From an uncultured Anaerolineales bacterium (lineage in GTDB: Bacteria > Chloroflexota > Anaerolineae > Anaerolineales > UBA11858): 64,000 nt of DNA. Where the stretch lies: assembly GCA_964582965.1 (NCBI GenBank), contig CAZOUN010000001.1, positions 4,745-68,744 of the forward strand. The letters are read 5' to 3'. Within the stretch, counting starts at the first letter, position 1. Every line of letters begins with the position of its first letter. Below the pieces are notes generated by a model. That model worked only from the letters and a program-made list of their open reading frames with translations. It was not told the origin of the DNA and made no database searches. The translations under genes and the position numbers were made by a program. Of this stretch, positions 7,307 to 26,907 are shown piece after piece.

Positions 7307-7326
7307 TTATTTTGAAAGGATTAGCT

Positions 7327-8193: not shown

Positions 8194-8196
8194 TCT

Positions 8197-8670: not shown

Positions 8671-8698
8671 TCAAGATCTATATGACAAGGAGAACAAT

Positions 8699-9361: not shown

Positions 9362-9403
9362 CGACAACAGGTTGCTGCTAAGACCTTACGGAAGGAGAAG
9401 ATC

Positions 9404-9862
9404 ATGGCACAGCGCAATAATATGGGCGTGATTGTCGCAGGCGTTACTGGAATGGTGTTTGGTGGTGTTACAGCCGTAGAAGGTTATGTTTCCCGGTCTG
9501 TTGGCGCAGTGAATGCCAGCTTGATCGAACATGTTTTTGCAGCGATGGTGGCTGTTCCCGCGGTGATTTATTTATTCATGCGGGGCAACTTGACATGGGA
9601 AGGGACCAAATCTATCCTTCCTATATCGGCTGTAGCCGGCGTAATGGTCATTATCGCTGTGGCTGGTGTCGCCTATGCCATACCCAAGACCGGTGTTGCG
9701 GCTGGCAATATGGCCATGATGTTTGGTCAGATGGCAGTTGCGGTAGTGATCGATATGATCGGAGTCGGTGGATATGATAAAGTCCCGCTGACCTTACCGC
9801 GAGTTCTTGGCCTTTTACTGATGATCGTTGGTGTTTACTTAGTGCTGCCACGGCAGTCTTGA
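9404..9862 (+). CDS. DUF606/YdcZ-type small DMT-superfamily membrane protein 1
   Basis: 152 aa, about 5 hydrophobic helices. Its C-terminal pattern AIPKTGVAAGNMAMMFGQMAVAVVIDMIG...LLMIVGVYLV parallels the second copy at 48323. RBS GGAGAAG. Confidence 0.6.
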   Translation: MAQRNNMGVIVAGVTGMVFGGVTAVEGYVSRSVGAVNASLIEHVFAAMVAVPAVIYLFMRGNLTWEGTKSILPISAVAGVMVIIAVAGVAYAIPKTGVAAGNMAMMFGQMAVAVVIDMIGVGGYDKVPLTLPRVLGLLLMIVGVYLVLPRQS

Positions 9863-9877
9863 AAACAAGGATGATAT

Positions 9878-12145
9878 ATGCACGACTATGAAATAGTTGG
9901 AAAGGGAATGGCTGCTATTGGGGGGAAGGACGTTGTCACAGGAAAAGCGGTGTACGCACCGGATATTGAATTTTCGGATATGCTGGTTGGGAAACTGCTG
10001 TACAGCCCCTATGCCTGCGCCCGGATTCTCAAGCTGGATGTTGCAAAGGCCAGAGAGTTACCTGGTGTGGTTGCAGTCATGACAGCAGAGGATATTCCTG
10101 GTGAAAACAGCTACCAATACTGGTACAGTGACCAGCCCTTACTGGTGAAGGATCAAATCCGTTATCGAGGAGACCCGCTTGCAGCCGTAGCAGCGGAAAC
10201 AGAAGAGATTGCCCTGCTTGCCCTGGCTGCTATTGAAGTTGAATATGAACCCCTGGAAGGGATATTTGATGTCGATGAAGCCATGCGGCCGGGCGCGAAG
10301 AAGGTCTGGGCAGAGAAAGAGAATATCCACAGCCATCATGTTGAGAGCTGGGGGGATATCGAAGAGGGTTTTTCAAAAGCGGACGTGATCGTTGAAAACA
10401 CCTTCCAAACCTCATATCAGGAACATGCTATGCTGGAAACTGAATCAGCGGTTGCAAAATTGGATCTAGACGGCTCGGTAGTGGTGTATGCCTCCGCCCA
10501 AGCTCCTCACCGCGACCGGATCCAGATTGCCAGGGCTTTAGGTGTGCCTGAAGCGATGGTGCGTGAGATCACTCCTCATATCGGAGGTGCATTTGGCGGG
10601 AAGGATGAAGCCAATATCCAGATTCATGCCGCATTGCTGGCTAACCAGACCAAACGACCGGTCCGCATTGTTAGGACCCGGGAAGAATCTATCCTGACCC
10701 ATGTCAAACGCCACCCGATCAAGGTGAAATACCGCATGGGCGCAACTAAAGAGGGTAAATTAACTGCAATTCATCTGGTGGGTATCGGGGATACCGGTCC
10801 TTATGTGAATGCCGGTGAAGAAGTCATGATGGTGATGGGCGCGTATGGATTCTCACCCTATTTTGTTCCTCACGCCAAGACTGAAGCATATACGATATTT
10901 ACGAATAATCCGATAGGCGGCGCCTTCCGCGGATTTGGTGTACCGCAGGCAACCCTTGCTTTTGAGGGTTCGATGGATGCGCTGGCCAGAGAACTGGAAA
11001 TGGACCCCCTGGAGATCCGGAAGATCAATGGATTAAAAACAGGTCAGAAATTCCAGCCTAATTCTGTAGTACGGCAGGCAGAAGGGCTGCTGGCTTGCCT
11101 AGATAGAGCTGCTGAATTATCAGACTGGAAGAATAGAGGGGAAAAAGAGCGCCAACCTGCCCCGAATCTGCGCCGCGGTTGGGGATTGGCTTTATCCTTT
11201 CATAAAGTAGGTTTTGGACGTAATATACCGGACCACGCCGCCGCTGGCATCAATATGGCCCCGGATGGCTCGGTTTTGGTTCGGACCGGCGGGGCAGATC
11301 TGGGACAGGGCTTACATACACTGATCGCACAATTTGTTGCTGAACAGTTGGGGGTTCCCTTTGATCAGGTGAAGGTATTTAAACCGGATACCACCCTCGC
11401 TGCAGATGCTGGTGCGTCAGTTGCCAGCCGCGCGACCGTTTTTTCTGGAAACGCAACCCTGCGAGCCGCAGCACCCATTCGTCAAGTTCTAATTGATCTT
11501 GCCGCCGCTGAGGTTGGCGCTGATCCAGAACTGATTGATCTAAAAAAAGGATATGTATATGTAGAAAATGAACAGGTCCAGCTTTCTATCCAGGAACTTG
11601 CATCTATGGCTTATGAGAAGAACCTGCCAATGCAGGCGACCGGTTTTTTCACCATGGATTATCCCGAGGTGAAATTGGATGACGGTTCCACCGGATTTGA
11701 ACAAGTGGTTGGATTTGGAGCTCATGTGGCACAGGTCCTGGTTGATGTGGAAACAGGACAGGTTGAGGTGGAGCGGGTCATCGCTGTGCACGATGCTGGC
11801 ACTATCATCAACCCTAAAGGAGCCCGTGGTCAGGTGGAGGGGGCCGTTTCGATGGCCTGCGGTTATGCCTTGATGGAAGAGTTGATTGTGGACCAGGGAT
11901 TGATCCAGAATCCTTCCTTGGAGAGTTATTTGATCCCCACGGTATGGGACGTGCCAGAGATTATTGCGGACTTCGTCGAGATCGAAGATGCTGCGGGACC
12001 ACTTGGGGCCAAAGGATTGGGTGAACCGCCCATGAATATCACTCCAGCTGCGATCGCCAACGCGGTAACTGACGCCATCGGTGTACCCGCTACCCATCTT
12101 CCTATCACGCCTGAACGAGTCTTGTCGTTATTAGAAACTAAGTAA
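9878..12145 (+). CDS. Molybdenum hydroxylase large (molybdopterin) subunit, xanthine dehydrogenase family, set 1
   Basis: 755 aa with GGAFGGKDE, GGAFRGFGVPQ and GLGEPPM (catalytic Glu region). The form I CO-dehydrogenase VAYRCSFR loop was not seen. Confidence 0.88.
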   Translation: MHDYEIVGKGMAAIGGKDVVTGKAVYAPDIEFSDMLVGKLLYSPYACARILKLDVAKARELPGVVAVMTAEDIPGENSYQYWYSDQPLLVKDQIRYRGDPLAAVAAETEEIALLALAAIEVEYEPLEGIFDVDEAMRPGAKKVWAEKENIHSHHVESWGDIEEGFSKADVIVENTFQTSYQEHAMLETESAVAKLDLDGSVVVYASAQAPHRDRIQIARALGVPEAMVREITPHIGGAFGGKDEANIQIHAALLANQTKRPVRIVRTREESILTHVKRHPIKVKYRMGATKEGKLTAIHLVGIGDTGPYVNAGEEVMMVMGAYGFSPYFVPHAKTEAYTIFTNNPIGGAFRGFGVPQATLAFEGSMDALARELEMDPLEIRKINGLKTGQKFQPNSVVRQAEGLLACLDRAAELSDWKNRGEKERQPAPNLRRGWGLALSFHKVGFGRNIPDHAAAGINMAPDGSVLVRTGGADLGQGLHTLIAQFVAEQLGVPFDQVKVFKPDTTLAADAGASVASRATVFSGNATLRAAAPIRQVLIDLAAAEVGADPELIDLKKGYVYVENEQVQLSIQELASMAYEKNLPMQATGFFTMDYPEVKLDDGSTGFEQVVGFGAHVAQVLVDVETGQVEVERVIAVHDAGTIINPKGARGQVEGAVSMACGYALMEELIVDQGLIQNPSLESYLIPTVWDVPEIIADFVEIEDAAGPLGAKGLGEPPMNITPAAIANAVTDAIGVPATHLPITPERVLSLLETK

Positions 12146-12162
12146 ATTTAACCGGGATATAC

Positions 12163-13392
12163 ATGACAGCCGCTTATCAAAATCGCTTGGATAATCTGAA
12201 TAAAGCCTTTCGCCTGGAACTCAAGGAAAAGGTGCTGCTGGCGCCATTCTCGGATCACTTTTTCTCCACCAGAAGGACGGGACTCTCGAATAAAGACGCC
12301 ATGGTGGATCACAAGAAGCGCTATCAGGCAATCAAACAAACTGTCTTGGATTTTGATTTGGATCTGGCGATGCAGTCCGGAGTCTACCCGGCGCAGTGGT
12401 TCTCAGCACTGGATGCTAAACATTATTATTGGCCAGGCGGTGAGCTGCCTGAGGATAAAACCTTCCAATTCAATGAAAAAGAGAACTTGATGGCGGATGA
12501 ATATGACCAATTCCTTGCTGATCCGACAGATTTCACGATCAGGGTGCTCTGGCCGCGTATGACGGGTAAACTGGAACCTATGGCAGCGTTTCCGCCCATA
12601 TTTTCGCTGGGACCGGACCCCATTTTCCTGGGGCCGGCTTTTTCGTATCCTGAGAACCTGGAAGTATTACGGGCGTTGATCAAACTGGGTGAAGCTGCGG
12701 CAGAGTCGGATCAGGCTGGAGCGGAATATGTAGCAGACATGAAAGAGCTTGGTTATCCGGTATCCTATCAGGCTAATTTCACACCCCCCTTTGATATCGT
12801 TGCAGATTTTCTGAGAGGATTAAAGGGAACCATGTTGGATCTGTACAGGCAGCCGGAAAAATTACTAGCTGCAGTTGAACTCTACGTGGAACCCCAGATC
12901 GAAGCCGCAATCAGCTGGGCAGAGGCAGTAGGCAATCCACGGATCGTATTTTGGATGCATAAAGGTGCAGCAGGTTTTATGTCAGATGAGCATTATAAGG
13001 ATTATTACTGGCCCAGCACCAGGAAAGTTATGCTCCGCCTGGTTGAAGCGGGGCTGACGCCGATACTTCATGTCCAGGGAGACTACACCCCCAGGCTAGA
13101 ATATCTAGCCGAGCTTCCCCGCGGCAAAGTGCCCATTCATTATGATCGGGTTGATCACCAGAAAGCCCTGGAGATCATGGGTGACCGCCAGTGCTTCTGG
13201 GGAGGGATCTCTTCGGCATTGTTGGTGACTGGAAACCAGGAGCAGGTGAAGGATGAAGTAATTAAGTTGATAGAATCATTTGGACCACTAGGCGGTTTGA
13301 TTGTGGATGGAAGCGTAGGCATCCCTGACGAAGCCAAGCCCGAGAACATTCAAGCCCTGGTGGACACAGTCCGGTCATACAACGCAGGCTAA
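12163..13392 (+). CDS. URO-D (uroporphyrinogen decarboxylase / MtaA-MtbA-CmuA) family methyltransferase-like protein
   Basis: 409 aa. C-terminal GGLIVDGSVGIPDEAKPENIQALVDTV and LHVQGDYTPRLEYLAELP resemble the URO-D family pattern. The H-x-C zinc motif position of MtaA-type enzymes reads H-V-Q here. The family call is from memory of motifs only. Confidence 0.55.
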   Translation: MTAAYQNRLDNLNKAFRLELKEKVLLAPFSDHFFSTRRTGLSNKDAMVDHKKRYQAIKQTVLDFDLDLAMQSGVYPAQWFSALDAKHYYWPGGELPEDKTFQFNEKENLMADEYDQFLADPTDFTIRVLWPRMTGKLEPMAAFPPIFSLGPDPIFLGPAFSYPENLEVLRALIKLGEAAAESDQAGAEYVADMKELGYPVSYQANFTPPFDIVADFLRGLKGTMLDLYRQPEKLLAAVELYVEPQIEAAISWAEAVGNPRIVFWMHKGAAGFMSDEHYKDYYWPSTRKVMLRLVEAGLTPILHVQGDYTPRLEYLAELPRGKVPIHYDRVDHQKALEIMGDRQCFWGGISSALLVTGNQEQVKDEVIKLIESFGPLGGLIVDGSVGIPDEAKPENIQALVDTVRSYNAG

Positions 13393-13404: not shown

Positions 13405-14808
13405 ATGGAGAAGAAACAACGCTGCGATTTATTATTGACCAGAGGAATTGTCATCACAGTAGATGAGGGCAGGCAAGTTTTTGATCCTGGAACGGTGGCG
13501 ATCCAGGGAGATAAGATACTGGCTGTCGGTCCTGCCAGCGAGATGGATCATTTTCAAGCTGATCGCGTGATCGATTGTAAGGGGAAGATGATCACTCCCG
13601 GTTTTGTCGATTGCCACAACCACCTCTTTGAGTCGCTGCTGCGCGGTGTAGGAGAAGGGATGGAGTTATATCCCTGGCTGGCTGAACTGTTGGAACCTTT
13701 CAGCGACAGGGTCACACGGGAGGAAGCTGTCTCGGCGGTATTAAACTGCTCCCTTGAAGCCATTCGAAATGGGACGACATGTATTATAGATAATCATTAT
13801 GGGCCAACCGACCTCGATACGACCCTTGCTGTTGCTGATGCGATCCAGCAGACCGGGTTGCGAGGTGCTGTTGCCCGTGGGATGTATGGGCCCGCTACAG
13901 ATATCTCTGGAGAACATGGATACCAGTTGGAGCGCACCTTTATGTACAGCGTCCAGGAGGAGATAGATATTTCCCGGGATGCCATGAAAGCCCGGCCAGC
14001 TGGCAGTAAAGTCACTGTTTGGCCTGCTCCGGAAAATGTTTCTTATAATCCACATGAACTCGTGATCGGAGCTGTTGAGCTGGCCCGTGAATTTGGAACC
14101 CGGTGGCATACTCATATGGCAGAGGGGGAAATAGAAGACGGCCTTTACAGAAAAGAAAATGGCGTCGGGATGGTTGAGAAGCTTAATCAAGATGATCTAT
14201 TAAGAGATGGAACCTTTGCTCATGCGATCTGGTTGAGCGATCAGGATATTAAAATATTGGGTGAAGCAGAGGCTGGTATCGCCCACTGCCCCGTGAGCAA
14301 TCAGTATTTGGCCACCGGGATCATGAGATTGCGCGACCTCCAGGCTGCCGGCTCAGTAGTAGGCTTGGGTAGTGATGGTTCTTGCTGCGGCAACCAGGAC
14401 TTGATCCTGGCGATGCGGTCCGCAGTACTCCTGCAGCGCGTGAATACCCTGGACCCCACGGTGGCAACAGCCGAACGGGTTTTTGAAATGGCAACTGTAA
14501 ATGGCGCACGTTATGCGGGAATTGATGCTGGTCAAATAGAACCAGGGAAGCTGGCAGATATCATTGTAATAGGCATGGAAGGATCAAGTACTAAACCATT
14601 TAACCGGGCTCTGGGATCGCTGGTTTATAACGGTTCCGGCGCGGATGTTGAGATGACTATTGTAGGAGGTGAAATAATCTTCGAAAACGGAACAATTATT
14701 AATGTTGACGAGATTTCCATCAAAGATGAAGTTCAAAGAAGAGCAGATGAGCTATTCGAACGACTTGGATTGGAAAACTATCGGACGCATTGGATAAAGC
14801 AACCTTAA
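13405..14808 (+). CDS. Amidohydrolase, MtaD/AtzA/guanine-deaminase-like subfamily (copy 1)
   Basis: 467 aa with PGFVDCHNH (HxH), HTHMAEGE, FAHAIWLS and GLGSDGSCCGNQD. These metal and catalytic positions are typical of this subfamily. Confidence 0.8.
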   Translation: MEKKQRCDLLLTRGIVITVDEGRQVFDPGTVAIQGDKILAVGPASEMDHFQADRVIDCKGKMITPGFVDCHNHLFESLLRGVGEGMELYPWLAELLEPFSDRVTREEAVSAVLNCSLEAIRNGTTCIIDNHYGPTDLDTTLAVADAIQQTGLRGAVARGMYGPATDISGEHGYQLERTFMYSVQEEIDISRDAMKARPAGSKVTVWPAPENVSYNPHELVIGAVELAREFGTRWHTHMAEGEIEDGLYRKENGVGMVEKLNQDDLLRDGTFAHAIWLSDQDIKILGEAEAGIAHCPVSNQYLATGIMRLRDLQAAGSVVGLGSDGSCCGNQDLILAMRSAVLLQRVNTLDPTVATAERVFEMATVNGARYAGIDAGQIEPGKLADIIVIGMEGSSTKPFNRALGSLVYNGSGADVEMTIVGGEIIFENGTIINVDEISIKDEVQRRADELFERLGLENYRTHWIKQP

Positions 14809-14831: not shown

Positions 14832-14903
14832 AGCTTAAGTCTAAAACAAAAAATCCGTGCTGATGAAATTGTCCAGAATATTTAGAAAATGGAGAGTTTA
14901 CAG

Positions 14904-15605
14904 ATGACGGAAGATAAATTTATCAAAGATCTTCGAGATGTGATTGCAAATGGCGATGAAGATCAGGCCGCTCCTGCGGCCCAAGCAGCCATTGATGCCG
15001 GCGTGAATCCAGGAACCTTGATTAAGGAAGCTATTAACGGTCCCATGGATGAGGTTGGAAAATCATTCCAGAATGGGGATATATTCCTGCCTGAATTAAT
15101 TATGATCGGAGATGCAGCAAGGGTAGCATCTGATGTGATTCTGCCCTATATATCCGTCGAAGAACAGGATGCTTCCTCGGGTGGAAAAGTGGTCATCGGT
15201 ACTATTCAGGGCGATATGCATGATATTGGCAAGAGTATTGTCTCGGCTTACTTGATGTCGACCGGATTTAAAGTAAAAGATTTGGGATCCGACGTTACAC
15301 CAAAGGATTTTATACGGGCAGCGGTAGATGAAAAAGCAGACGTGATCGCGATATCTACTTTGTTATCAACCACCCAGCCCCTCTTCGCCAATATCGTCAA
15401 GACCTTGGTGGATTCTGGACAGCGAGACAAAGTCTACGTTGTTGTAGGGGGTGGCCCCGTGACACCTGAATGGGCAGCAGACATTGGTGCTGATGGTTAT
15501 GGTCGGGATGCTGCGGATGCTGCTGATCTGGTTCGCCAGGTCCTTACATCTGGTGAAAAACCACCCTTCGCCAAACCAATAGTCATCGGTGCTTTGAAAC
15601 AATAA
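14904..15605 (+). CDS. Corrinoid methyl-carrier protein 2
   Basis: GDMHDIGKS (DxHxxG), ISTLLSTT, VVGGGPV. GGAGAG (14890-14895) sits 8 nt before ATG 14904. The upstream in-frame ATG at 14889 is the alternative start. Confidence 0.85.
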   Translation: MTEDKFIKDLRDVIANGDEDQAAPAAQAAIDAGVNPGTLIKEAINGPMDEVGKSFQNGDIFLPELIMIGDAARVASDVILPYISVEEQDASSGGKVVIGTIQGDMHDIGKSIVSAYLMSTGFKVKDLGSDVTPKDFIRAAVDEKADVIAISTLLSTTQPLFANIVKTLVDSGQRDKVYVVVGGGPVTPEWAADIGADGYGRDAADAADLVRQVLTSGEKPPFAKPIVIGALKQ

Positions 15606-15628: not shown

Positions 15629-17005
15629 ATGAATAAACCTGAGATTATCAATATCCTGGATCGATCCCAGAACGGAGAATATTGTACGGTGAAAGAATGG
15701 GATATCAAACGCATTCCCAAGGCCGTGAAAGAAAAACTTGAAAAATACGATCTGAAAGGCGCCTGTGATCCTGAAAACCCGGTCAATATGGATGCCGAGC
15801 TGGCTGACCGCTTTTTTAAGGCTGGTTATGAAATGGCCCTGGATCTGGGCATGCTCTGCGAAACAACCGATAGAATAATCAAAGTGTCTAAGGAAGAATT
15901 AGATGCTGCTTTGGAAAAAGCCCCGTCTGAATTAACTATTGGGACTGGCGATGATGCCACGGTAATAAAAACCCGAACACCATCTGACCCCTATGAATGT
16001 AAATTTGGGGCCTCCCTGGGCATCACCGTATCAGAAGACGTTTGGCCAGCCTTGACCGAAGGTATTGCCCGACAGGAAGCTGTGGACGTGCTGGAAGGCG
16101 GCTCATTGAAGTCCATTTATGGACTGGATGTCATTCCTGATGCACCCTCAGAGACCCTGGTAGGTTTTGAGCAGGCTAAACTGCACGTGGAGATCCGCAA
16201 AAAAGCCGGACGTCCGGGGATGGGCGGTATAGGTCAGATCTCGGCCGTGACTGAATATGGTCAGTTTGGCGGCTACGGTATCCCCGGAGCATTACCTATT
16301 ACAGATCTGTCATTGATCTTGTTCCCGTCGGAACTGAAGGTCAATTATCAGACTTTGCACAAGGTGGTGCATACCCTGAATGTTGGCGGTATGATCTTTG
16401 CCGGTTCCCCGGCTATGATCGGCGGTATGCCCGGCCCACCCGAGGGTGCTGTGCTTTCCTGTATTGCTTGTGCCTTGCTGCAGTATCCGATTTTGCAGGC
16501 GGACGTGGGTGGAGGTGAGATCTACGATATCCGCTATCTGTCCAACGTCAATCGCGATGGCATCTGGGCTCTGAGTGTGACTCACCAGGCCCTCAGCCGC
16601 AATACCAATCTTTTGACCCACGGCATTGCCAACCAGGTTTCTGGTCCGGGAACCAAGGAACTTCTTTATGAAACCCTGGTCGGTGTTTCAACCATTGCAG
16701 CTTCCGGAGCTGCATTCTCAACAGGTCCGCGATCGGCGGGTGGAAAATTGGATGACTATCTATCCCCGCTGGAATGTGGTTTCTGCGCTGAAGTATCACA
16801 CGCGGCTTCTGGACTTTCACTTGAAAAAGTGAATGAGATCGCAAAGGCAGTACTGCCGAAATTTGAAGATTCCATCAAGGATCCCCACATCGGCAAGATT
16901 GTTCAGGATGTTTACGACCTTGAGAATTTCAAAGCCAAACCGGAATGGCAGCAAATGTACGATGAGGTTAAACAAGAAGCGATTGACTTGGGATTACCTC
17001 TCTAA
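15629..17005 (+). CDS. MtmB-family methyltransferase, non-pyrrolysine, divergent singleton (paralog 5)
   Basis: Its N-terminus is the closest of the set to archaeal MtmB (MDAELADRFFKAGYEMALDLGMLCETTDRIIKVSKEELDAAL). GRPGMGGIG places ATA (Ile201) at 16229-16231 on the Pyl-aligned site. The GGYxGG motif is replaced by IGGMPGPPEG. C-terminal VQDVYDLENFKAKPEWQQMYDEV..LGLPL. Confidence 0.85.
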   Translation: MNKPEIINILDRSQNGEYCTVKEWDIKRIPKAVKEKLEKYDLKGACDPENPVNMDAELADRFFKAGYEMALDLGMLCETTDRIIKVSKEELDAALEKAPSELTIGTGDDATVIKTRTPSDPYECKFGASLGITVSEDVWPALTEGIARQEAVDVLEGGSLKSIYGLDVIPDAPSETLVGFEQAKLHVEIRKKAGRPGMGGIGQISAVTEYGQFGGYGIPGALPITDLSLILFPSELKVNYQTLHKVVHTLNVGGMIFAGSPAMIGGMPGPPEGAVLSCIACALLQYPILQADVGGGEIYDIRYLSNVNRDGIWALSVTHQALSRNTNLLTHGIANQVSGPGTKELLYETLVGVSTIAASGAAFSTGPRSAGGKLDDYLSPLECGFCAEVSHAASGLSLEKVNEIAKAVLPKFEDSIKDPHIGKIVQDVYDLENFKAKPEWQQMYDEVKQEAIDLGLPL

Positions 17006-17129: not shown

Positions 17130-18506
17130 ATGAAACATAGAGGGCGATTACATGAAGTGATCAGAAGGGCAGAGAACGGCCCAATGATCGAAGAAAAAGA
17201 GTTCGAAAAGAACCTGATCACATCAACTGTCGCACGGCTGATTAAGAAATATAACATCAAATTCAACAAGGAAACGATCGTTCCTGCTGATGATGATCTA
17301 GCTGATCGCCTTTACCAGGCTGGACTCGAATTCGCAGTTGAAGTTGGTATGTTTTGTAAAGATACCAGTCGACGAATTTTGTGGTCACGTGAAGAGTACG
17401 AAGACGCCCTTCGTTATTGTCCATCCGAGGCTATTATTGGCGAGGGAAATGACGCGGTAAAAATATTGGCCAGAAGACCTGAGTCCTCAACTCGTGTAGT
17501 TGTCAGCGGCGGAGCGGTTGGTGTACCTGTGCCTGAAGATATGTATCTTCCGCTCATGATGAGTTATGCCAAGGAACCAGTTATTGATCTGCTCGAGCCG
17601 GCCTCAATACAATCTGCTTATGGTATGCCTATGAAAGCGGGATCCCCCCTGGAAATCATCGCAGGATGGCGGGATGCAGAGCTCGCCTTACAGGTCATTA
17701 ATTTAGCGGGCAGGCCCGGGATGGGTTTGGCTTGCGTCACGATCTCAGCTACCGCCATTGGTCAAATTTCCCCTGCCTCTTATGGCGGATTTCGTCAATC
17801 CGATTGGCATCATTGTTCAGTGATGAGTGAATTTAAGACCAGCTATGATCTGTTGTCTAAGGTTACTCACACGACCCGGATCGGCGCAAATATGGAAGCC
17901 TATCTGAACATCATTTTTGGAGGTTACTTTGGAGGCGCTGAAGGGGTCGCGATTGGATTAGCAGCTGGCCCGATCATTCTTAACCAGAATTATATGGGCA
18001 CCACCTACAGTGTCGCCCCCAGCCATCCATTTCTCCACTGTGGTTCCACGTCGGAGATGATCTGGGCGCAAAGCCTGGCGTTCCAGGCAGTTTCCAGGAA
18101 TACAAATCTCCTGACCGCTTCCATGATCAAACCTGCGGGCGGTCCGGGAACCAGATCGATCCTCTATGAGAATGCGGCACTATCGATAGCCAATGTCACT
18201 TCTGGCCTTTCGGTTGTTGAATCCTGTATGTCTGCCAGCGGCACAAATCCCAGGCATGCCAGTGGGCTGGATTCCAAGATATGTGGTGAAGTTGCCCACG
18301 CAGCTACCGGACTCAGTCGGGAACAGGCCAATAAAATCGTAAAACAGTTGACCGAAAAATATGAAAAGGGCCTGAGTGAAAAACCAGCAGGCAAACCTTT
18401 TGAGGAAGTTTATGATCTTGAGACGATCACACCTACGGTTGAATGGCAGGGAATGTACGACGAAGTAAAGGTTGAGCTGCAGCAGATGGGTCTTCCGATT
18501 AATTAG
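17130..18506 (+). CDS. MtmB-family methyltransferase, non-pyrrolysine (paralog 6, class B)
   Basis: RBS TAGGAGGGG. Motifs VPADDDLADRLYQAG, GEGNDAV, GRPGMGLA with GCT (Ala201) at 17730-17732 on the Pyl-aligned site (Methanosarcina barkeri Pyl202), IFGGYFGGAEG, APSHPFLHC, C-terminal KPFEEVYDLETITPTVEWQGMYDEV..MGLPIN. Confidence 0.9.
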   Translation: MKHRGRLHEVIRRAENGPMIEEKEFEKNLITSTVARLIKKYNIKFNKETIVPADDDLADRLYQAGLEFAVEVGMFCKDTSRRILWSREEYEDALRYCPSEAIIGEGNDAVKILARRPESSTRVVVSGGAVGVPVPEDMYLPLMMSYAKEPVIDLLEPASIQSAYGMPMKAGSPLEIIAGWRDAELALQVINLAGRPGMGLACVTISATAIGQISPASYGGFRQSDWHHCSVMSEFKTSYDLLSKVTHTTRIGANMEAYLNIIFGGYFGGAEGVAIGLAAGPIILNQNYMGTTYSVAPSHPFLHCGSTSEMIWAQSLAFQAVSRNTNLLTASMIKPAGGPGTRSILYENAALSIANVTSGLSVVESCMSASGTNPRHASGLDSKICGEVAHAATGLSREQANKIVKQLTEKYEKGLSEKPAGKPFEEVYDLETITPTVEWQGMYDEVKVELQQMGLPIN

Positions 18507-18514: not shown

Positions 18515-19903
18515 ATGAACATGCTTTTTGAAAACGCAACTATCTTAACCATGAATCCCAAACGGGAGATTATCACCCAGGGTGCAGTGGTGGTTTCGGG
18601 CAGTCAGATCGTTGCAGTCGGTAAAACCAAAGACCTGGTTGAAAAATACCCTGAAAAAAAGAGGATCAATTGCAACGGTAACGTGATCCTGCCTGGCTTG
18701 ATTGATACCCATGTACACACGGCCCAAGCAATGATCCGGGGCTGTGCCGATGACCTGGGCTTGCTCGATTGGTTATTCAAAAGGGTTTGGGTGCTGCAGG
18801 GCAGCTACACTGAGGAAGACGGCCGGGCAAGTGCTGCCTTATGTGCCCTGGAAATGATCAAGTCAGGCACTACTAGTTTTCTGGAATGTATGCTGGCTGA
18901 AGTATACGGCTTTGATGGTGTAGCAGAAGTGCTGATCCAATCAGGTATGCGGGCAGCTATTGGAAAGATCGTCATGGATATGCCCTCCTATGCCGGAGCG
19001 CGAGATGTCATGCATCCGGGCATGGTAGAGGATGGGGAAACTTGCATAGCGAATACCCTTACTGCCTATGATAAATGGAATGGCGCAGGAGATGGCCGCA
19101 TCCAGGTCTGGTTCGGGGCCCGTACCCCTGGTGGCGTCACGCCTGAGTTATATGACCAGATCAGCCAATTAGCGAAAGAGCGTGATATGGGTATCACTGT
19201 CCATCTCTCTGAGGTAAAAGAGGATATTGAATACGCCGTATCTCAAGGTTTTCGATCCCCAATTGAGTTTGCTCAAGAACATGGATTATTGGGGCCTCGG
19301 TCTGTCCTGGCCCACTGTGTCTGGACTGATGAAAAGGATTGGGAACTGATCGCTAAAACCGGTACAACCGTTTCTCACAATCCTGCTTCAAACGCAAAAA
19401 CCGCTACTGGTATCGCTGATGTGCACGGCATGCTGAAAGCTGGCGTGAATGTCACGCTGGGCTGCGATGGTGGTCCAAGCAATAATTCCTATGACATGAT
19501 CCGCGATATGCGCTTGGTGAGCTACCTGGCGAATCTAGAGCATAACGATCCAACCGTAGTGCCTGCGGAAAGTGTTTTAGAGATGGCCACGATTAATGGG
19601 GCCAAAGCACTCGGGCTGGAAGATCAGATCGGTTCGCTTGAAGTGGGAAAGAAAGCAGACTTCATCCTAATCGATATGGATAAACCGCATTTAACCCCGG
19701 CACCAGATCCGGTATCAACCATTGCCTATGCAGCGCATGGAAGTGATGTGGATACCGTTGTGATTGACGGCAAGATTGTTATGGAAAACAGAAAAGTGCT
19801 GTCCTTGGATGAAAGACAGATACTTGACGAAGCACGTAAACGCTACCCGAATGTAGCAAAACGAGGAGATTTAGATATCAAACCCCGTTGGCCAGTAATT
19901 TAG
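18515..19903 (+). CDS. Amidohydrolase, MtaD/AtzA/guanine-deaminase-like subfamily (copy 2)
   Basis: 462 aa with PGLIDTHVH, TVHLSEVKED, LAHCVWTD, LGCDGGPSNN. Starts 8 nt after paralog 6. Confidence 0.82.
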   Translation: MNMLFENATILTMNPKREIITQGAVVVSGSQIVAVGKTKDLVEKYPEKKRINCNGNVILPGLIDTHVHTAQAMIRGCADDLGLLDWLFKRVWVLQGSYTEEDGRASAALCALEMIKSGTTSFLECMLAEVYGFDGVAEVLIQSGMRAAIGKIVMDMPSYAGARDVMHPGMVEDGETCIANTLTAYDKWNGAGDGRIQVWFGARTPGGVTPELYDQISQLAKERDMGITVHLSEVKEDIEYAVSQGFRSPIEFAQEHGLLGPRSVLAHCVWTDEKDWELIAKTGTTVSHNPASNAKTATGIADVHGMLKAGVNVTLGCDGGPSNNSYDMIRDMRLVSYLANLEHNDPTVVPAESVLEMATINGAKALGLEDQIGSLEVGKKADFILIDMDKPHLTPAPDPVSTIAYAAHGSDVDTVVIDGKIVMENRKVLSLDERQILDEARKRYPNVAKRGDLDIKPRWPVI

Positions 19904-19999
19904 AATTTGTCTGGAAGAAATAATAGGAGGTGAAAATTATAATGTATATTTGTTTTGGTGTACTGAAGATTGATTATTAGATTTACAAAGGAGTTCGAA

Positions 20000-21154
20000 A
20001 TGGCTAAAAAACTGAGAATCTGGACAATTATTTCCCTGCTGTTAATCGCATCCATGCTGGTTCTATCGGCATGTGGTCCACAACCTGCAGCAGAAGAACA
20101 GGTTGTCGAAGAAGCAGCTGAGGAAACAATAGAAGAATCAGTGGCTATGCAAAAAGCTTGTTTTATCCACAGTTCAACTGTCAGCGATATGGGCTGGACA
20201 TACGCCAATGAACGAGGTCGCTTGTATTTGAATGAAAATGTTGAAGGTGTCGAAACTACATTAATCGAAAACATCTCAGATTTTGGTGGCTCTGATGTCG
20301 AAAAGGTCATTGAGGATTTCATTCAAGCAGGATGCACCATCATTGTTGGCACAAGCTTTGGCTACACCGAGGCGATTGCTGCTAAAGCAGAAGAACATCC
20401 GGATGTGTTTTTCCTCAATGAGAGCCAGTATATACCTGGAGATAACATTCAGTCACATTGGCTCCGCCTCTACGAAGGTTTCTTCCTGACAGGTGTACTG
20501 GCTGGGAGCATGACGGAGAGTGACGTTATCGGTATTGTTGCAACCTTCCCGATTCCTGAATTACTTCGCCGGTTGAATGGTTTCGCACGCGGTGTCCAGG
20601 AAGTCAACCCAGACGCAACTATTAAAGTTGTTTGGATCAACAGCTGGTATGACCCTGCAAAAGAGACAGAGGCAGCTGAAAGTCTCATTGCGGCAGGTGC
20701 AGATGTGGTCCAGCACTTGTCTTCATCGCCCGCATCCCTGCAGGCAGCGCAAGCAGCTGGCATTTTCGGGATCGGCTACCAGAATGACCAGAGTGAATAC
20801 GGCCCAGACGCCTACCTGGGATCAATGCTCATTGAATGGGGTCCTTTGTTTGCGGATTCGATCGAGAAGATCATGGATGGTACCTGGGAAGCAGGAGAGA
20901 TTTGGTATGGCCTGGCAAGCGGCGCGCTTGATGCGGGTCCATTCTCAGACCTTGTTCCTCAAGACGTCCAGGATCTGATTGCTGATTATAAAGCACAGAT
21001 AATTTCGGGCGAATATCAAATCTGGGAAGGCCCGATGTATAGCCAGGATGGCACACTACAGATCCCGGCTGGAGAAGTACGAGATGATGCAGATATCGAC
21101 CAGATCGATTGGTTGCTCCAGGGTATCGACGGCACAATTCCGAGTATGGAGTAG
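20000..21154 (+). CDS. BMP-family (PnrA/Med-like) ABC substrate-binding lipoprotein, transporter 1
   Basis: AAGGAG (19987-19992) precedes ATG 20000; the ORF-track start at 19970 is TTG. Signal peptide with lipobox LSAC. BMP-like core: SDMGWTYANERG, IIVGTSFGY. Confidence 0.8.
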   Translation: MAKKLRIWTIISLLLIASMLVLSACGPQPAAEEQVVEEAAEETIEESVAMQKACFIHSSTVSDMGWTYANERGRLYLNENVEGVETTLIENISDFGGSDVEKVIEDFIQAGCTIIVGTSFGYTEAIAAKAEEHPDVFFLNESQYIPGDNIQSHWLRLYEGFFLTGVLAGSMTESDVIGIVATFPIPELLRRLNGFARGVQEVNPDATIKVVWINSWYDPAKETEAAESLIAAGADVVQHLSSSPASLQAAQAAGIFGIGYQNDQSEYGPDAYLGSMLIEWGPLFADSIEKIMDGTWEAGEIWYGLASGALDAGPFSDLVPQDVQDLIADYKAQIISGEYQIWEGPMYSQDGTLQIPAGEVRDDADIDQIDWLLQGIDGTIPSME

Positions 21155-21180
21155 AAAAGTTTATCAGTAGAAGTAGATCA

Positions 21181-21216
21181 ATGGCAGCCGGCTTTACGGT
21201 TTAGGCCGGCTGCCAT
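21181..21216 (+). promoter_or_regulatory. Intra-operon stem-loop after the substrate-binding-protein gene
   Basis: Perfect 12-bp arms ATGGCAGCCGGC (21181-21192) / GCCGGCTGCCAT (21205-21216) with a 12-nt loop. It is followed by an A-run, not a T-run. Confidence 0.4.
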
Positions 21217-21236
21217 ATCAAAAAATAGGATTTTAG

Positions 21237-22781
21237 ATGACACAGAACCGAGATGATAAGAACCAGTTGCTGATCGATATGCGGGATATTGTCAAGCGTT
21301 TTCCAGGAGTATTGGCAAACGATGGTGCTAATCTTACTCTTCGTCGAGGAGAGGTGCACGCTGTCCTGGGCGAGAACGGAGCAGGCAAGAGCACATTAAT
21401 GAACATCCTTTCCGGTTTATATAGACCAGATAGTGGAGAAATCTATGTTGGCGGCGCACGAAAAGAATTTGGCTCTGCACGTGATGCTCTATTAGCGGGA
21501 ATTGGCATGGTCCATCAGCATTTCTGCCTGGTTGATATTTTTTCTGCCGCAGAGAATATCACTCTCGGAATGAATGAACCTCGAGTTCATTTGAATATGG
21601 CCAATATAGAAGAAGAGATTGGCGAATTAGGACGTAAATACAATCTGGGTATTGATCCCCATGCCAGGATTTGGCAACTTTCTATCGGAGAACAGCAGCG
21701 TGTTGAAATTCTCAAATTACTTTACCGCGATGCACAAGTTCTCATCCTTGATGAACCAACATCGGTTCTCACGCCTCAAGAATCGGACGAGCTCAGTGAT
21801 ACATTACGCCGCCTGGCAGATTCGGGACGCGGGATTATTTATATTAGCCATCGTTTAAGCGAGGTTTGTGCGGTTGCCGATCGAGTGACAATCATTCGTG
21901 GCGGCCGTAATATTGCCACACTTGAGCTTGAAGAAATTGACGAAGCCCGGGTCGCAAATCTTATGCTTGGGGCAGATGTGTCAGATTTTGTGCAAGTAGA
22001 TCACACTAAAAAGCCAGGAAACGTTGTCCTCGAGATCAAGGATTTAGACGTGACCAGCGATCGGGGTTTACCAGCAGTGCGAGCAGCAAATATATCCGTT
22101 CAGGCAGGCCAGATTGTTGGTTTGGCCGGAGTAGCAGGAAATGGCCAAAAAGAACTTGCTGGTGCGATTGCTGGCATGCGCGCTGTTGATTCGGGAATAA
22201 TCAATATTTCAGGCAAGCCCATTGCTGGTAAGGGAACGCGCGAGATTATTAACGAGGGAGTAAGTTTGATCCCGGAAGATCGGACGGGAACAGGATTGGT
22301 AACAAATTTAAGTATTAAAGATAACACCATATTGCGTGGGTATTGGAAGAAACGGTTTTCCCGCGGGATATTGATTAATTGGAAAGAAGTAGAAGAGCAT
22401 ACAGAGAAACTTGTAGAGGATTTTAATGTTGTAACTCCCCATATTAATGAGGAGATTTGGAAACTTTCTGGAGGAAACCAACAACGATTATTGTTGGCCC
22501 GTGAAATGACCTCAGAGCCTAAAGTAATCGTCGCCAGCCACCCTACAAGTGGGCTGGATGTCCAGGCAGCAATGGATGTTCATAATTTATTAATTGAACA
22601 AAGAGATAGGGGAGCAGCTATCCTGGTGATATCTGAAGATTTGGAGGAGCTAATGACGCTTTCTGATCAGATCATTGTGATCTATGACGGGCGCGTAACC
22701 CCTCCGATTCCAGCGACAGAAGCAGATCGATCAGAGTTGGGATTATTGATGATGGGGTCCGGCGTGAAGGAGCAAGTGTAA
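21237..22781 (+). CDS. ABC transporter ATP-binding protein, duplicated-ATPase CUT2/nucleoside type, transporter 1
   Basis: 514 aa with two ABC domains. Walker A GENGAGKST, LSIGEQQRVEI, second-domain GVAGNGQKEL, LSGGNQQR. Confidence 0.9.
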   Translation: MTQNRDDKNQLLIDMRDIVKRFPGVLANDGANLTLRRGEVHAVLGENGAGKSTLMNILSGLYRPDSGEIYVGGARKEFGSARDALLAGIGMVHQHFCLVDIFSAAENITLGMNEPRVHLNMANIEEEIGELGRKYNLGIDPHARIWQLSIGEQQRVEILKLLYRDAQVLILDEPTSVLTPQESDELSDTLRRLADSGRGIIYISHRLSEVCAVADRVTIIRGGRNIATLELEEIDEARVANLMLGADVSDFVQVDHTKKPGNVVLEIKDLDVTSDRGLPAVRAANISVQAGQIVGLAGVAGNGQKELAGAIAGMRAVDSGIINISGKPIAGKGTREIINEGVSLIPEDRTGTGLVTNLSIKDNTILRGYWKKRFSRGILINWKEVEEHTEKLVEDFNVVTPHINEEIWKLSGGNQQRLLLAREMTSEPKVIVASHPTSGLDVQAAMDVHNLLIEQRDRGAAILVISEDLEELMTLSDQIIVIYDGRVTPPIPATEADRSELGLLMMGSGVKEQV

Positions 22782-23869
22782 TGAAGATCAAAATTGAGAA
22801 ACGACTTGACGCGCCCCGCATCCTAGTAATCCTAATGCCTCTGGTTGCGGTAATTATTGCATTTGTTATCAGCGGGATCTTAATTGCCACAACTGGAGCA
22901 AATCCTTTCGCAGCTTTTGATACGATGTGGAAAGGTGCCTTTGGGACAACATATTCTCTATCAGAAACAATTGTTAGTTCTATTCCCCTTATGCTTGCAG
23001 GACTCGGCGTAGGTATTGCTTCACATGCGAAACTTTGGAATATTGGTGGCGATGGCCAGATCATCATGGGTGCTTTTGCCGCTTCTGGTTTGGCCTTGTT
23101 CTATCCTGATCTACCACGGCCGATCTTAATTGGGGGGATGATGATTCTTGGCTTCTTGGCTGGAGGCTTATGGGCAGTTATTGCTGCGCTGCCACGCATC
23201 TACTTGGGTATAAATGAGATCATCACTACAATGATGTTTAATTTCATTGCCGGCTTTTGGGTAAGTTATATCGTTCAAGGTCCATGGCGGGATCCGATTT
23301 TGGTGGGCTTCCCATTTACGGCAAAATTTACAAAAGAAGCTTGGTTGCCAAGATTCTTCGGAACCAGGATACACCTTGGATTAGTGATTGCATTGATCGC
23401 CGCGGTAATTATCGCCATCTTGCTATATCGTTCAAAATGGGGTTATGAATTAAGGGTGATCGGCGGAAGTCTTGATTCTGCAAATTACGCGGGAATTAAT
23501 GTCAAGAGAAGTTTGCTATTGGCGATGTTGCTCAGTGGAGGTTTGGCGGGCTTGGCAGGGATGGCCGAGGTTTCCGGGATTCTTCACAGATTACAAGAAG
23601 GCATTGCTGCCGGGGCGGGTTTCAGCGCTTTTATTCTGGTTGCATTGGCTAATGGAAACCCGTTTGGAATAATAGTATCAGGTTTTTTGCTGGGCGCTTT
23701 ATTAACTGGAGGGACGTCTGCCCAAACGATGGGAGTGCCGCCACAAATAGCAGATATTATGCAAGGTCTTATTCTATTCTTTGTTCTTGCTTCGACTTTC
23801 TTTACACGGTATCGGGTAAAGTTTGATCGGCCTGAACTTAAGAGCGCTAATGTGGAAAGCGGAGATTGA
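22781..23869 (+). CDS. ABC transporter permease, transporter 1
   Basis: 362 aa polytopic membrane protein. Its start overlaps the ATPase stop. Typical CUT2/BMP-system permease layout. Confidence 0.85.
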   Translation: MKIKIEKRLDAPRILVILMPLVAVIIAFVISGILIATTGANPFAAFDTMWKGAFGTTYSLSETIVSSIPLMLAGLGVGIASHAKLWNIGGDGQIIMGAFAASGLALFYPDLPRPILIGGMMILGFLAGGLWAVIAALPRIYLGINEIITTMMFNFIAGFWVSYIVQGPWRDPILVGFPFTAKFTKEAWLPRFFGTRIHLGLVIALIAAVIIAILLYRSKWGYELRVIGGSLDSANYAGINVKRSLLLAMLLSGGLAGLAGMAEVSGILHRLQEGIAAGAGFSAFILVALANGNPFGIIVSGFLLGALLTGGTSAQTMGVPPQIADIMQGLILFFVLASTFFTRYRVKFDRPELKSANVESGD

Positions 23870-23871
23870 TT

Positions 23872-24798
23872 ATGGATGTATATATGTTCAGCGCTTTACT
23901 TCACACAATGATCACCGCTGGAACACCTATCGTTTATGCAGCACTTGGGGAATTGATCACAGAACGAGTCGGTATTCTCAACCTTGGCCTTGAGGGGGTA
24001 ATGTTAATTGGATCCATCGCTGGTTTTGCTACAGCCTCCCATTTTTCAAACCATTGGATAGGCCTGGGAGCTGCGATCATTGCCGGCGCATTGACAGGGT
24101 TATTCTTCGCGTTATTATGTGTGGGATTTAAGGTGGATCAAGTCGTAGCCGGGATCGCATTATCTACTTTTGGAATTGGATTCAGCGCTTTTGTTGGAAA
24201 ACCCTGGCTGGGAAAACCATTTTCTGTGCCGTTTGAGGACATAAGACTGCCGATTTTGGCCGATATTCCCATTATTGGTGAACCGTTTTTTAACCAGGAT
24301 GCCCTTGTATATATCTCCTACTTGCTGGTTCCGATTCTCTGGTATTTTGTTTACAAAACACGCCCTGGACTGCACCTGCGCTCAGTGGGAGAGAATCCAC
24401 GAGCGGCAGACACTTTGGGAATTAATGTTACCCGGATGCGATATGTTTACACGATGATAGGTTGTGCAATTGCTGCTATCGGTGGCGCTTATCTAACAAT
24501 GGCCTTTGTTCCCACCTGGTTTGAAGAAATTACGGTTGGTCGGGGCTGGATTGCTGTCTCACTAGTGATATTCTCGGGATGGAATCCATTAATCGTTATT
24601 TTTGGTGCCTACTTGTTTGGGGGTCTGGACGCTGCCACTCTTTATATCCAGGCAATAGGTACAAATATTCCCTCTCATTTCCTGGGAATGGGCCCATATA
24701 TTCTAACGATCCTTGTATTGGTTCTTGCGGCTCGTAAACGCCAGGGAGGGTTGGGGCCAGCGGCTCTTACGATACCATACGACAGTGAAGGGCAGTAG
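23872..24798 (+). CDS. ABC transporter permease, transporter 1 (second subunit)
   Basis: Polytopic membrane protein. GGAGA (23861-23865) precedes ATG 23872; the ORF-track TTG at 23866 is the alternative start. Confidence 0.85.
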   Translation: MDVYMFSALLHTMITAGTPIVYAALGELITERVGILNLGLEGVMLIGSIAGFATASHFSNHWIGLGAAIIAGALTGLFFALLCVGFKVDQVVAGIALSTFGIGFSAFVGKPWLGKPFSVPFEDIRLPILADIPIIGEPFFNQDALVYISYLLVPILWYFVYKTRPGLHLRSVGENPRAADTLGINVTRMRYVYTMIGCAIAAIGGAYLTMAFVPTWFEEITVGRGWIAVSLVIFSGWNPLIVIFGAYLFGGLDAATLYIQAIGTNIPSHFLGMGPYILTILVLVLAARKRQGGLGPAALTIPYDSEGQ

Positions 24799-24842: not shown

Positions 24843-25319
24843 ATGTCAAAGGTCGAAATAAAATTTCAGGTCAACGGCGAAGAAAAAACTGTAAAGACAG
24901 CCCCTGACCGAACTCTGTTAAAGGTCTTGCGAGAAGACTTGAATCTGACAGGCACCAAAGATGGCTGCAGCCAGGGGGACTGCGGCGCCTGTTTGGTGAT
25001 GATGAATGGCAAGGCAGTAAATTCCTGCCTGGTTCTGGCTCCTCAGGCAGACGGGGCAAAGATAATAACCGTAGAGGGATTGGCCGAAAATGGAGAACTC
25101 AGCAATCTGCAGCAGGCTTTCGCGGAAAGATGGGGATTTCAGTGCGGATTTTGCACACCTGGCATGTTGATCTCCAGTTATGCCCTGTTGCAGAGTAATC
25201 CTGATCCAACCCTGGAGGAGATCAAGCGAGCACTGGCTGGAAATCTCTGCCGTTGTACTGGCTATAAGCCAATATTTGATTCGGTCAAGATGGCTGCTGA
25301 ACTGACAATGGATAAATAA
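24843..25319 (+). CDS. Molybdenum hydroxylase [2Fe-2S] small subunit, set 2
   Basis: 158 aa with CSQGDCGACLV..NSC and CGFCTPGM...CRCTGY. Paralog of 8197-8670. Confidence 0.9.
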   Translation: MSKVEIKFQVNGEEKTVKTAPDRTLLKVLREDLNLTGTKDGCSQGDCGACLVMMNGKAVNSCLVLAPQADGAKIITVEGLAENGELSNLQQAFAERWGFQCGFCTPGMLISSYALLQSNPDPTLEEIKRALAGNLCRCTGYKPIFDSVKMAAELTMDK

Positions 25320-25321
25320 TC

Positions 25322-26731: not shown

Positions 26732-26907
26732 GTCATACGGCGATCAGCGCTTTTTGGGGATCTTTTTATCAACCGTATTCAAATAAATGAAAATATATTG
26801 TTGGAGAAGAAAATAATGGTCAATAGAAATCGATTGATAAAGAAGCAACCGTTAGCCATTAATAGAATTGGTTCAGATGGATGCAGGACTGGGGAAGGAG
26901 GTAGCAA

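Follow-up and report, generated by a model that had tools for sequence, protein, structure and literature searches.

The methyltransferase MtmB of Methanosarcina barkeri carries pyrrolysine (Pyl) at residue 202. Here we describe a 64-kb stretch of DNA (64,000 nucleotides, hereafter the window) from an uncultured Anaerolineales bacterium of the Chloroflexota (assembly GCA_964582965.1, contig CAZOUN010000001.1, positions 4,745 to 68,744). Open reading frame (ORF) listing, motif extraction and BLASTP identify 11 genes of the MtmB family (PF05369) in it. Seven of the paralogs were assigned by Pfam scan, with scores of 225–347 bits against a cut-off of 25 and coverage of profile positions 3–450. 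The other four were assigned by BLASTP and are 30–61% identical to those seven. Pairwise identity across the whole set is 28–61% by BLASTP, and all 11 ORFs are intact, with no internal stops. The 10 paralogs scanned against NCBIfam gave no match, and no scanned paralog matched the MttB superfamily (PF06253) in Pfam. In an alignment of 68 sequences, 25 columns are invariant, including barrel glycines, and the GRPG motif is invariant or nearly so.

The paralogs differ at the third residue after GRPG[MI], which reads G, G, G, S, I, A, G, G, T, N and G in window order. The Gly types on the forward strand are 17–877 (codon GGC at 89–91), whose 5′ end is cut by the window start and which is 57% identical by BLASTP to 17130–18506; 3041–4489 (GGC 3707–3709), which comes after a GntR gene and a cytosine-deaminase-like gene; 4493–5896 (GGC 5123–5125); 25322–26731 (GGG 25919–25921); and 29156–30544 (GGC 29771–29773), whose start overlaps the end of a gene for a xanthine dehydrogenase (XDH)-like Mo subunit. 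Another Gly type lies on the reverse strand at 45993–47387 (GGC 46788–46790) and has the motif GKPGM (Pfam 322 bits). The forward strand also encodes a Ser type at 5918–7306 (Ser206, TCC 6533–6535; 306 bits), an Ile type at 15629–17005 (Ile201, ATA 16229–16231; 225 bits) and an Ala type at 17130–18506 (Ala201, GCT 17730–17732; 325 bits). A Thr type (36774–38150, ACA 37548–37550) and an Asn type with the motif GRPEM (39592–40992, AAT 40396–40398; 347 bits) are on the reverse strand. An earlier note on this DNA had tallied six Gly and one each of Ala, Ser, Ile, Thr and Asn among the 11 paralogs, and had given the Ala, Ile and Ser codons with their coordinates. Re-reading the sequence returned the same residues, codons and positions.

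The pyrrolysine-equivalent column and its companion residues

Sequence alignment and structure prediction agree that this column corresponds to Pyl202. In the Ala-type gene, positions 17709–17732 read GGC AGG CCC GGG ATG GGT TTG GCT, encoding GRPGMGLA. HMMER aligns the product of 17130–18506 with M. barkeri MtmB (PDB 1L2Q/1NTH) at E 4e-69, without gaps across the Pyl region, and pairs Pyl (X202 in AGRPGMGVXGPETS) with Ala201. A MAFFT alignment of all 11 paralogs with M. barkeri MtmB gives an identical Pyl column. The AlphaFold2 model of 17130–18506, built from the 68-sequence alignment, has a mean predicted local distance difference test score of 94.5 and a predicted template-modelling score of 0.94. 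Foldseek superposes this model on 1L2Q/1NTH/1TV2 with a template-modelling (TM) score of 0.95 and a root-mean-square deviation of 1.4 Å over 449 columns. Ala201 falls within predicted strand 199–202; Pyl202 is likewise anchored on a TIM-barrel β-strand (PMC9842639). The earlier note had proposed superposition on M. barkeri MtmB as a check of its assignment. In the superposition Ala201 lies opposite Pyl202, and no different, invariant residue takes that place. The equivalence of this column to Pyl202 is confirmed in the predicted structure.

None of the paralogs encodes Pyl. The Pyl-equivalent codons are all sense codons (GGC/GGG, GCT, TCC, ATA, ACA and AAT), and in-frame TAG is absent from all 11 genes, as the earlier note had stated. 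TAG is an ordinary stop codon in the window. The 51 non-overlapping ORFs of at least 150 amino acids (aa) end in TAA (31), TAG (11) or TGA (9), and TAG terminates three of the MtmB paralogs themselves (17–877, 3041–4489 and 17130–18506). The homologs at 72 related loci are also free of stop codons at the Pyl column. We reject TAG read-through and Pyl use: TAG does not occur at this column in the window or at the 72 related loci, and it serves as a normal stop.

The machinery for Pyl was likewise not found in the window. No tRNA gene was found in the 64 kb, and no pyl-like gene was found among the 51 ORFs. All but three of these ORFs were screened with Pfam or NCBIfam, and the remaining three match transporter or corrinoid-protein paralogs by BLASTP. 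The absence of pylTSBCD from the window, which the earlier note had also reported, is borne out by the tRNA, Pfam/NCBIfam and BLASTP screens.

We also asked whether residues that accompany Pyl are kept. A literature search for papers naming MtmB active-site residues found nothing. The residue test was drawn instead from a reference set of public Pyl-type proteins retrieved with the M. barkeri MtmB sequence, of which 25 fragments were aligned. Genuine Pyl-type MtmBs appear in public data as C-terminal fragments of 244–255 aa because gene callers stop at UAG 202. H228, E229, E259, Q333 and Y335 are kept in 25 of the 25 aligned fragments. Among the window paralogs, E229, E259 and Q333 are found in none of the 11, Y335 in one and H228 in six. 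The substitutions include His at 229 (7/11), Tyr or Phe at 259 (8/11), hydrophobic residues at 333 and Arg or Lys at 335 (6/11). Because Pyl and E229, E259 and Q333 are all missing from the paralogs, the archaeal pyrrolysine mechanism is very unlikely for these enzymes. This supports the view of the earlier note that they do not use monomethylamine in the archaeal manner.

A different kind of homolog is also present in public data. Full-length proteins 45–57% identical to M. barkeri MtmB (P0270–P0283) retain all or most of the Pyl-associated residues, yet their residue 202 is Gln, Cys, Lys, Ile or Thr. These residues could be true substitutions, or the gene caller may have applied an alternative code and translated a UAG codon.

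Conserved subfamilies of Pyl-free homologs

Homologs of the window paralogs are numerous. A database search recovered 416 proteins at E ≤ 1e-20, up to 96% identical, and a genome scan recovered 72 loci in 51 metagenome-assembled genomes (MAGs), with a best match of 71% identity. The MAGs belong mainly to Anaerolineales and other Chloroflexota, with a few from Acidimicrobiia, Clostridia/Oscillospiraceae, Verrucomicrobiota and Spirochaetes. More broadly, a profile search of 1.84 billion cluster representatives returned 1,587 clusters, 448 of them at E ≤ 1e-30. Variability at the Pyl column is family-wide and not particular to this genome: among the 150 best family representatives the residue is L, G, I, V, S, T, A, C, F, M, N, E, Q or W.

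Within this diversity, the paralogs represent stable types. We binned homologs by their nearest window paralog and read a signature at ten pocket positions. Each homolog group conserves its own ten-position signature across genomes, and orthologs in other genomes that are 50–96% identical retain the paralog-specific signatures. For example, the signature PIGCEHHYLK is shared by 38 sequences, and orthologs of 3041–4489 conserve PIGCEHHFFR. Other groups show xxACTHHYMK (Ala type), AFTGGHTYTT (Thr type) and HINDAxLLDY (Asn type). At the Pyl column itself, orthologs of the Ala type retain Ala, those of the Ile type have I, V or L, Thr occurs in 10 of 13 orthologs of the Thr type, and orthologs of the Asn type have Asn, Ser or Glu. 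Each paralog is a member of an old subfamily with its own conserved pocket.

Subfamily-specific positions were ranked by mutual information over eight clusters and 452 columns. The Pyl column ranks 9, and columns 333, 335 and 229 rank 2, 4 and 13. The flanking G-R-P-G is near-invariant next to this high-ranking column, so the variation at the Pyl column is more than chance. Seventeen of the top 30 specificity positions lie on or just after barrel strands, a class that holds 81 of 458 residues (P about 8e-7). What distinguishes the paralogs is thus conserved and clusters in the active-site funnel, the pattern expected of substrate specialisation. Substrate diversification, which the earlier note had expected from variability at the Pyl site, is supported both by the conserved subfamily signatures and by the barrel-strand enrichment. 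The data support a diversification spread over the whole barrel pocket and not confined to the Pyl column, which alone cannot separate the paralogs since Gly is common to six of them.

In this branch of the family the most frequent signature is Gly202-Cys203-Glu205-His228-His229-Tyr/Phe259 (M. barkeri numbering), present in 124 of 274 sequences. The Cys, Glu and two His residues near the former Pyl site could form a metal site, as in zinc-dependent corrinoid methyltransferases.

Corrinoid and purine-type genes around the paralogs

The paralogs sit within a complete corrinoid/tetrahydrofolate (THF) methyl-transfer system. Five corrinoid proteins are encoded in the window, and all five contain DxHxxG. 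Three of them have Pfam B12-binding and B12-binding_2 domains (8699–9361 and 14889–15605 on the forward strand, 36078–36734 on the reverse strand), and two on the reverse strand were identified by BLASTP (38167–38799 and 47445–48104). A pterin-binding methyl-corrinoid:tetrahydrofolate methyltransferase (MT2) is encoded on the forward strand at 32195–33049 (Pfam Pterin_bind; NCBIfam NF005719, 310 bits against a cut-off of 259). It is followed on the same strand by a 228-aa protein resembling the MetH activation domain (33053–33739; no Pfam match, PDB 1J6R at E 2.5e-9) and by a reductive activator of corrinoid proteins (RACo) at 33687–35564 (Pfam RACo_C_ter, Raco_middle, RACo_linker and Fer2). 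The order MT2-MetH-activation-like-RACo recurs in loci L005, L007, L020 and L038. The listed GTG start of the RACo ORF at 33687 overlaps 33053–33739 by 53 nt and may be too far upstream.

The forward strand also encodes a methyltransferase with a URO-D fold (12163–13392), similar to MtaA, CmuA and CdmB (Pfam URO-D; PDB 9RUI CdmB at E 3.7e-32). Its C-terminal half is the part that matches CdmB, the chloromethane:corrinoid methyltransferase of Acetobacterium (PMC13222342). The 12163–13392 product is probably another methyltransferase that depends on a corrinoid, and may serve the same pathway as a second kind of substrate methyltransferase (MT1), acting for instance on O- or S-methyl groups. The order XDH_Mo-UROD-amidohydrolase-CoP-MtmB, in which CoP is the corrinoid protein, recurs in loci L001, L003, L007 and L032.

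Interleaved with these genes are others of types known from purine metabolism. Two sets of genes for XDH-family Mo hydroxylases are on the forward strand. Set 1 (7312–12145; Pfam) comprises FAD (7312–8193), 2Fe-2S (8197–8670) and Mo (9878–12145) subunits, and a corrinoid-protein gene and a YdcZ-like gene lie inside its span. Its NCBIfam matches are pucD/XdhA-like but under cut-off, and its nearest PDB entries are 1RM6, 3HRD and 1JRO. Set 2 (24843–29178; Pfam and NCBIfam) comprises 2Fe-2S (24843–25319) and Mo (26908–29178) subunits, and the MtmB paralog 25322–26731 stands between the two genes. The next paralog, 29156–30544, overlaps the Mo gene by 23 nt if it starts at its TTG codon, or by 8 nt if it starts at an ATG five codons downstream. 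This overlap suggests that the methyltransferase is translationally coupled to the Mo hydroxylase.

Four amidohydrolases are encoded on the forward strand. One is cytosine-deaminase-like (1766–3019), with 384 bits to NCBIfam PRK07572, under its cut-off of 438, and PDB CodA (1K6W) at E 1.4e-75. The other three (13405–14808, 18515–19903 and 30808–32157) belong to the guanine/8-oxoguanine/5′-deoxyadenosine deaminase/TRZ-ATZ group by Pfam and PDB neighbours, with NCBIfam scores under the cut-offs. Three GntR/UTRA regulators of the HutC type were identified by Pfam, at 949–1749 on the forward strand and at 38834–39586 and 48806–49570 on the reverse strand.

Two ABC transporters of the BMP family complete the set. 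Transporter 1 (19970–24798, forward strand; Pfam) consists of a binding protein (19970–21154), an ATPase (21237–22781) and two permeases (22781–23869 and 23866–24798). Transporter 2 (41138–45887, reverse strand) has the binding protein at 44796–45887, the ATPase at 43170–44690 and permeases at 42090–43127 and 41138–42088; its binding protein was assigned by Pfam, with best PDB matches 3S99 and 6PI5, and its ATPase and permeases by BLASTP to transporter 1. No amine transporter of the BCCT or Opu type is present in the window.

The binding protein of transporter 1 offers the closest view of a possible ligand. Its scores are 264 bits to AtzT (6PI5), a protein that binds guanine with a dissociation constant of 110 nM, and 256 bits to 3S99, in whose site adenine was modelled (PMC6834077). 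Nine ligand-site residues of AtzT map uniquely onto 19970–21154 with a single numbering offset. The aromatic sandwich is retained (Tyr45 is Trp here, and Trp194 is the same), as are Ser97, Phe98 and Glu165. By contrast, Asn218 is replaced by Leu and Asn220 by Ser, and Arg and Phe stand at AtzT Asn169 and Thr139. In AtzT, Asn218 and Asn220 touch the guanine edge, with Asn218 at the exocyclic amine. Read from the sequence, these changes suggest a modified purine-like ligand, perhaps with an extra hydrophobic substituent.

Much of this neighbourhood recurs in other genomes. Near the MtmB homologs of the 51 MAGs we found a corrinoid protein in 50, a BMP binding protein in 29, a GntR regulator in 22, a guanine-deaminase-like amidohydrolase in 17 and an XDH Mo subunit in 17. 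BMP, amidohydrolase or XDH genes, singly or together, are near a homolog in 36 of the 51 MAGs, mostly Anaerolineales. The order XDH_FeS-XDH_Mo-MtmB-MT2 recurs in loci L001, L003 and L007. An 83% identical ortholog of 17130–18506 lies in a compact single-strand operon on Logan contig SRR13727536 (L074, 340–15358), with the order GntR, CoP, MtmB, CoP, MtmB, amidohydrolase, XDH FAD/FeS/Mo, a 392-aa product with no Pfam match on record, ABC ATPase and permeases. This operon is the most compact version of the island that we observed.

The left end of the island in the window is cut by the window start. On the other side, the genes of 49754–63948 resemble housekeeping genes (DegV, Tex, dihydrolipoyl-dehydrogenase-like, SurE, HAD hydrolase, glucokinase and transketolase, together with PTS enzyme I, an ARMT1-like phosphatase and PTS EIIC), so the island ends near 49.6 kb.

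Proposed function and comparison with known systems

We consider it highly probable that the paralogs are Pyl-independent, functionally diversified MT1 enzymes. The best explanation overall, to which we assign a probability of about 0.6, is that these Pyl-free MtmB-family MT1s act on methylated purine- or pyrimidine-type substrates as part of a purine-type pathway. The conserved gene neighbourhood is our sole source for the substrate class, and it points, at somewhat less than even odds, to methylated nucleobase-like heterocycles, that is, N-methylated purines, pyrimidines and related N-heterocycles. A more specific and slightly more tentative proposal is that the island encodes an undescribed form of anaerobic methylotrophy, in which MtmB-family enzymes, each tuned to a different compound, would demethylate N-methylated purines and pyrimidines. 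Candidate substrates under this proposal might include 7-methylguanine, N6- or 1-methyladenine, N2-methylguanine, methylcytosines and methylxanthines such as caffeine. The similarities of the Mo enzymes equally allow methylxanthines or non-purine heterocycles such as trigonelline.

The chemistry of such a pathway can be sketched. BMP transporters of the purine-base type would import the substrate. A TIM-barrel MT1 paralog would then move the substrate methyl group to Co(I) of its partner corrinoid protein, from which MT2 would pass it to THF; RACo, possibly together with the MetH-activation-like protein, would repair oxidised cofactor. The guanine- and cytosine-deaminase-like amidohydrolases would deaminate the demethylated base, and the XDH-like enzymes would hydroxylate it. 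Monomethylamine would presumably not be activated through a pyrrolysine adduct. We conjecture instead that each paralog holds a different N-methylated heterocycle in the cavity vacated by pyrrolysine, which would be largest with Gly at 202, and that the ring itself plays the activating part that the Pyl imine has for methylamine. N6-methyladenine, N2-methylguanine and N4-methylcytosine bear an exocyclic methylamino group attached to an amidine-like carbon, an arrangement that would resemble the Pyl-methylamine adduct. Likewise, ring-N-methyl cations (7-methylguanine, 1-methyladenine and 3-methylcytosine) would resemble the quaternary amines used by MtqB and MtgB. This proposal follows the argument made for MtgB and MtqB, in which the substrate mimics the Pyl adduct (PMC13044021).

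Several observations weigh against the heterocycle reading. It draws on gene neighbourhood and on no other line of evidence, and 15 of the 51 MAGs lack all three neighbour types (BMP, amidohydrolase and XDH) near the homolog, though many such contigs are short. The loci are not independent, since several share a MAG or come from related ones. Neither the amidohydrolases nor the XDH-like proteins reach an NCBIfam equivalog cut-off, and among solved structures the closest Mo enzymes are 4-hydroxybenzoyl-CoA reductase and nicotinate dehydrogenase, so a non-purine heterocycle is a possible substrate. An Rfam scan of the window gave no RNA family, and so neither a purine nor a cobalamin riboswitch. 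The pyl search was confined to the 64-kb window. Finally, the sole characterised non-Pyl MtmB, MtqB, uses small quaternary amines (PMC13044021).

This last observation leads to the most serious competitor, in which the paralogs are MtqB-like enzymes for small quaternary or simple methylated amines (tetramethylammonium, choline or betaines) and the purine-type neighbours are unrelated. MtqB, the only non-Pyl MtmB with a demonstrated function, demethylates tetramethylammonium (QMA) and choline, compounds proposed to act as mimics of the Pyl adduct (PMC13044021). Furthermore, several paralogs, namely the Asn and Thr types and the reverse-strand cluster at 36–48 kb, have no directly adjoining amidohydrolase or XDH gene. 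Set against this, the window lacks BCCT- and Opu-type transporters, while BMP transporters are found near homologs in 29 of the 51 MAGs and one BMP binding protein is closely homologous to purine-base binders. The pockets differ as well: the acidic residues of true MtmB are replaced in the window mostly by His, Tyr or Phe, and Arg or Lys, whereas the MtqB pocket, compared here by description only, is reported as Met/Cys plus aromatic. We regard this alternative as unlikely.

The family name and fold are those of the monomethylamine enzyme, and deaminase-type amidohydrolases directly adjoin several paralogs. One could therefore imagine that the amidohydrolases free monomethylamine from N-methylamino heterocycles (e.g. 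of the N6-methyladenine type) and that the paralogs then use it without pyrrolysine. We know of no case of pyrrolysine-independent monomethylamine activation in the MtmB family. Every Pyl-companion residue of the monomethylamine-using enzymes has been lost as a set, a single substrate does not explain 11 paralogs with distinct conserved pockets, and docking to MtqB gave negligible monomethylamine affinity (PMC13044021). This makes the scheme improbable. Operation in the methylating direction, or in another role such as biosynthetic methylation of a heterocycle, is more improbable still. Corrinoid methyl transfers are reversible in principle and an MT2 linking to methyl-THF is present, but the genes nearby encode transporters for uptake, deaminases and hydroxylases of catabolic type, and GntR regulators of the HutC type, which typically govern catabolic operons. 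The characterised members of the MtmB and MttB families are all demethylases (PMC13044021, PMC9842639). The least probable account is that the paralogs are decaying or non-catalytic duplicates in which the Pyl column drifts neutrally. Their divergence from one another (28–61% identity) and the family-wide variability of the column would fit such drift. It is contradicted by the intact ORFs, by orthologs that keep paralog-specific signatures at 50–96% identity, by the 25 columns invariant in 68 sequences and by the corrinoid-protein gene near homologs in 50 of 51 MAGs.

The window, taken with the neighbourhoods conserved in 36 of the 51 MAGs, has several consequences. It gives a testable candidate substrate class, methylated nucleobase-like heterocycles, for a large part of the MtmB family that lacks an assigned function, and the 11 paralogs with their distinct pockets form a natural panel for specificity studies. 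It also carries a warning for annotation. Surveys log mtmB in Anaerolineae and other Chloroflexota as monomethylamine genes (PMC11264602). The mtmB matches of the present type in Chloroflexota lack Pyl and its supporting residues, which suggests that reading them as monomethylamine use is wrong. If the proposed substrates are right, Chloroflexota ‘mtmB’ in such surveys would not signal methylamine use, and anoxic habitats would contain a sink, not recognised so far, for methyl groups from methylxanthines or modified nucleic-acid bases. A 2026 preprint that followed 13C-caffeine in anoxic sediment attributed N-demethylation to Methanosarcina and reported enrichment of Anaerolineae, Ardenticatenales and Verrucomicrobiota. 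Taxa enriched in that experiment carry these islands in our 72-locus set, a circumstantial connection.

Compared with known systems, the window paralogs resemble M. barkeri MtmB (1L2Q/1NTH) in family (PF05369), in the TIM-barrel fold, in the G-R-P-G that precedes the Pyl position, and in having a partner DxHxxG corrinoid protein and an activase. They differ in being only 28–31% identical to it, in the absence of UAG/Pyl at 202 and in the loss of Y335 in 10 of the 11. The archaeal system uses the coenzyme M (CoM)-linked MtbA, whereas the window is bacterial, with a THF-linked MT2, and its neighbours are purine-type transport and catabolic genes and not pyl genes. The MttB superfamily (MtgB for glycine betaine, MtpB, MtcB and MtyB) offers a parallel: it is a Pyl family in which most members are Pyl-free, with substrates that mimic the adduct, a three-component corrinoid/THF architecture and occurrence in bacteria. 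Its structures are distant, however, with Foldseek TM scores of 0.44–0.54 and 10–12% identity to 7XCL, 2QNE and 9YCE, and its substrates are quaternary amines, with transporters usually of the betaine/choline type. Anaerobic purine catabolism modules share gene families with the neighbourhood described here, and 19970–21154 shares the aromatic sandwich and the Ser/Phe/Glu contacts of AtzT. The window proteins fall under the NCBIfam equivalog cut-offs, however, and the AtzT Asn pair is Leu and Ser here. Our literature search found no described purine pathway with corrinoid methyltransferases, nor any paper in which MtmB homologs are associated with xanthine dehydrogenase, purine-type genes, caffeine, or methylated nucleobases or nucleosides.

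The closest functional precedent is MtqB of Methanococcoides methylutens (PMC13044021), likewise a Pyl-free MtmB-family MT1 with a cognate corrinoid protein, whose substrate is proposed to sit where the Pyl-methylamine adduct would be. MtqB comes from an archaeon and supplies CoM for methanogenesis through MtqA, while the closest relatives of the window are MAGs of Anaerolineales and other Chloroflexota, and the window MT2 is of the pterin/THF type. The MtqB pocket suits quaternary ammonium, and those of the window are lined with His, Tyr and Arg or Lys. The same study (March 2026) presented a tree of 1,061 Pyl and non-Pyl MtmBs, established with MtqB the first function for a non-Pyl member, and labelled the remaining enzymes ‘unknown function’ (PMC13044021). 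Replacement of Pyl in MtmB homologs is thus already known, and the paralogs described here are a new instance of that phenomenon. The new part is the conserved purine-type context of Pyl-free MtmB homologs.

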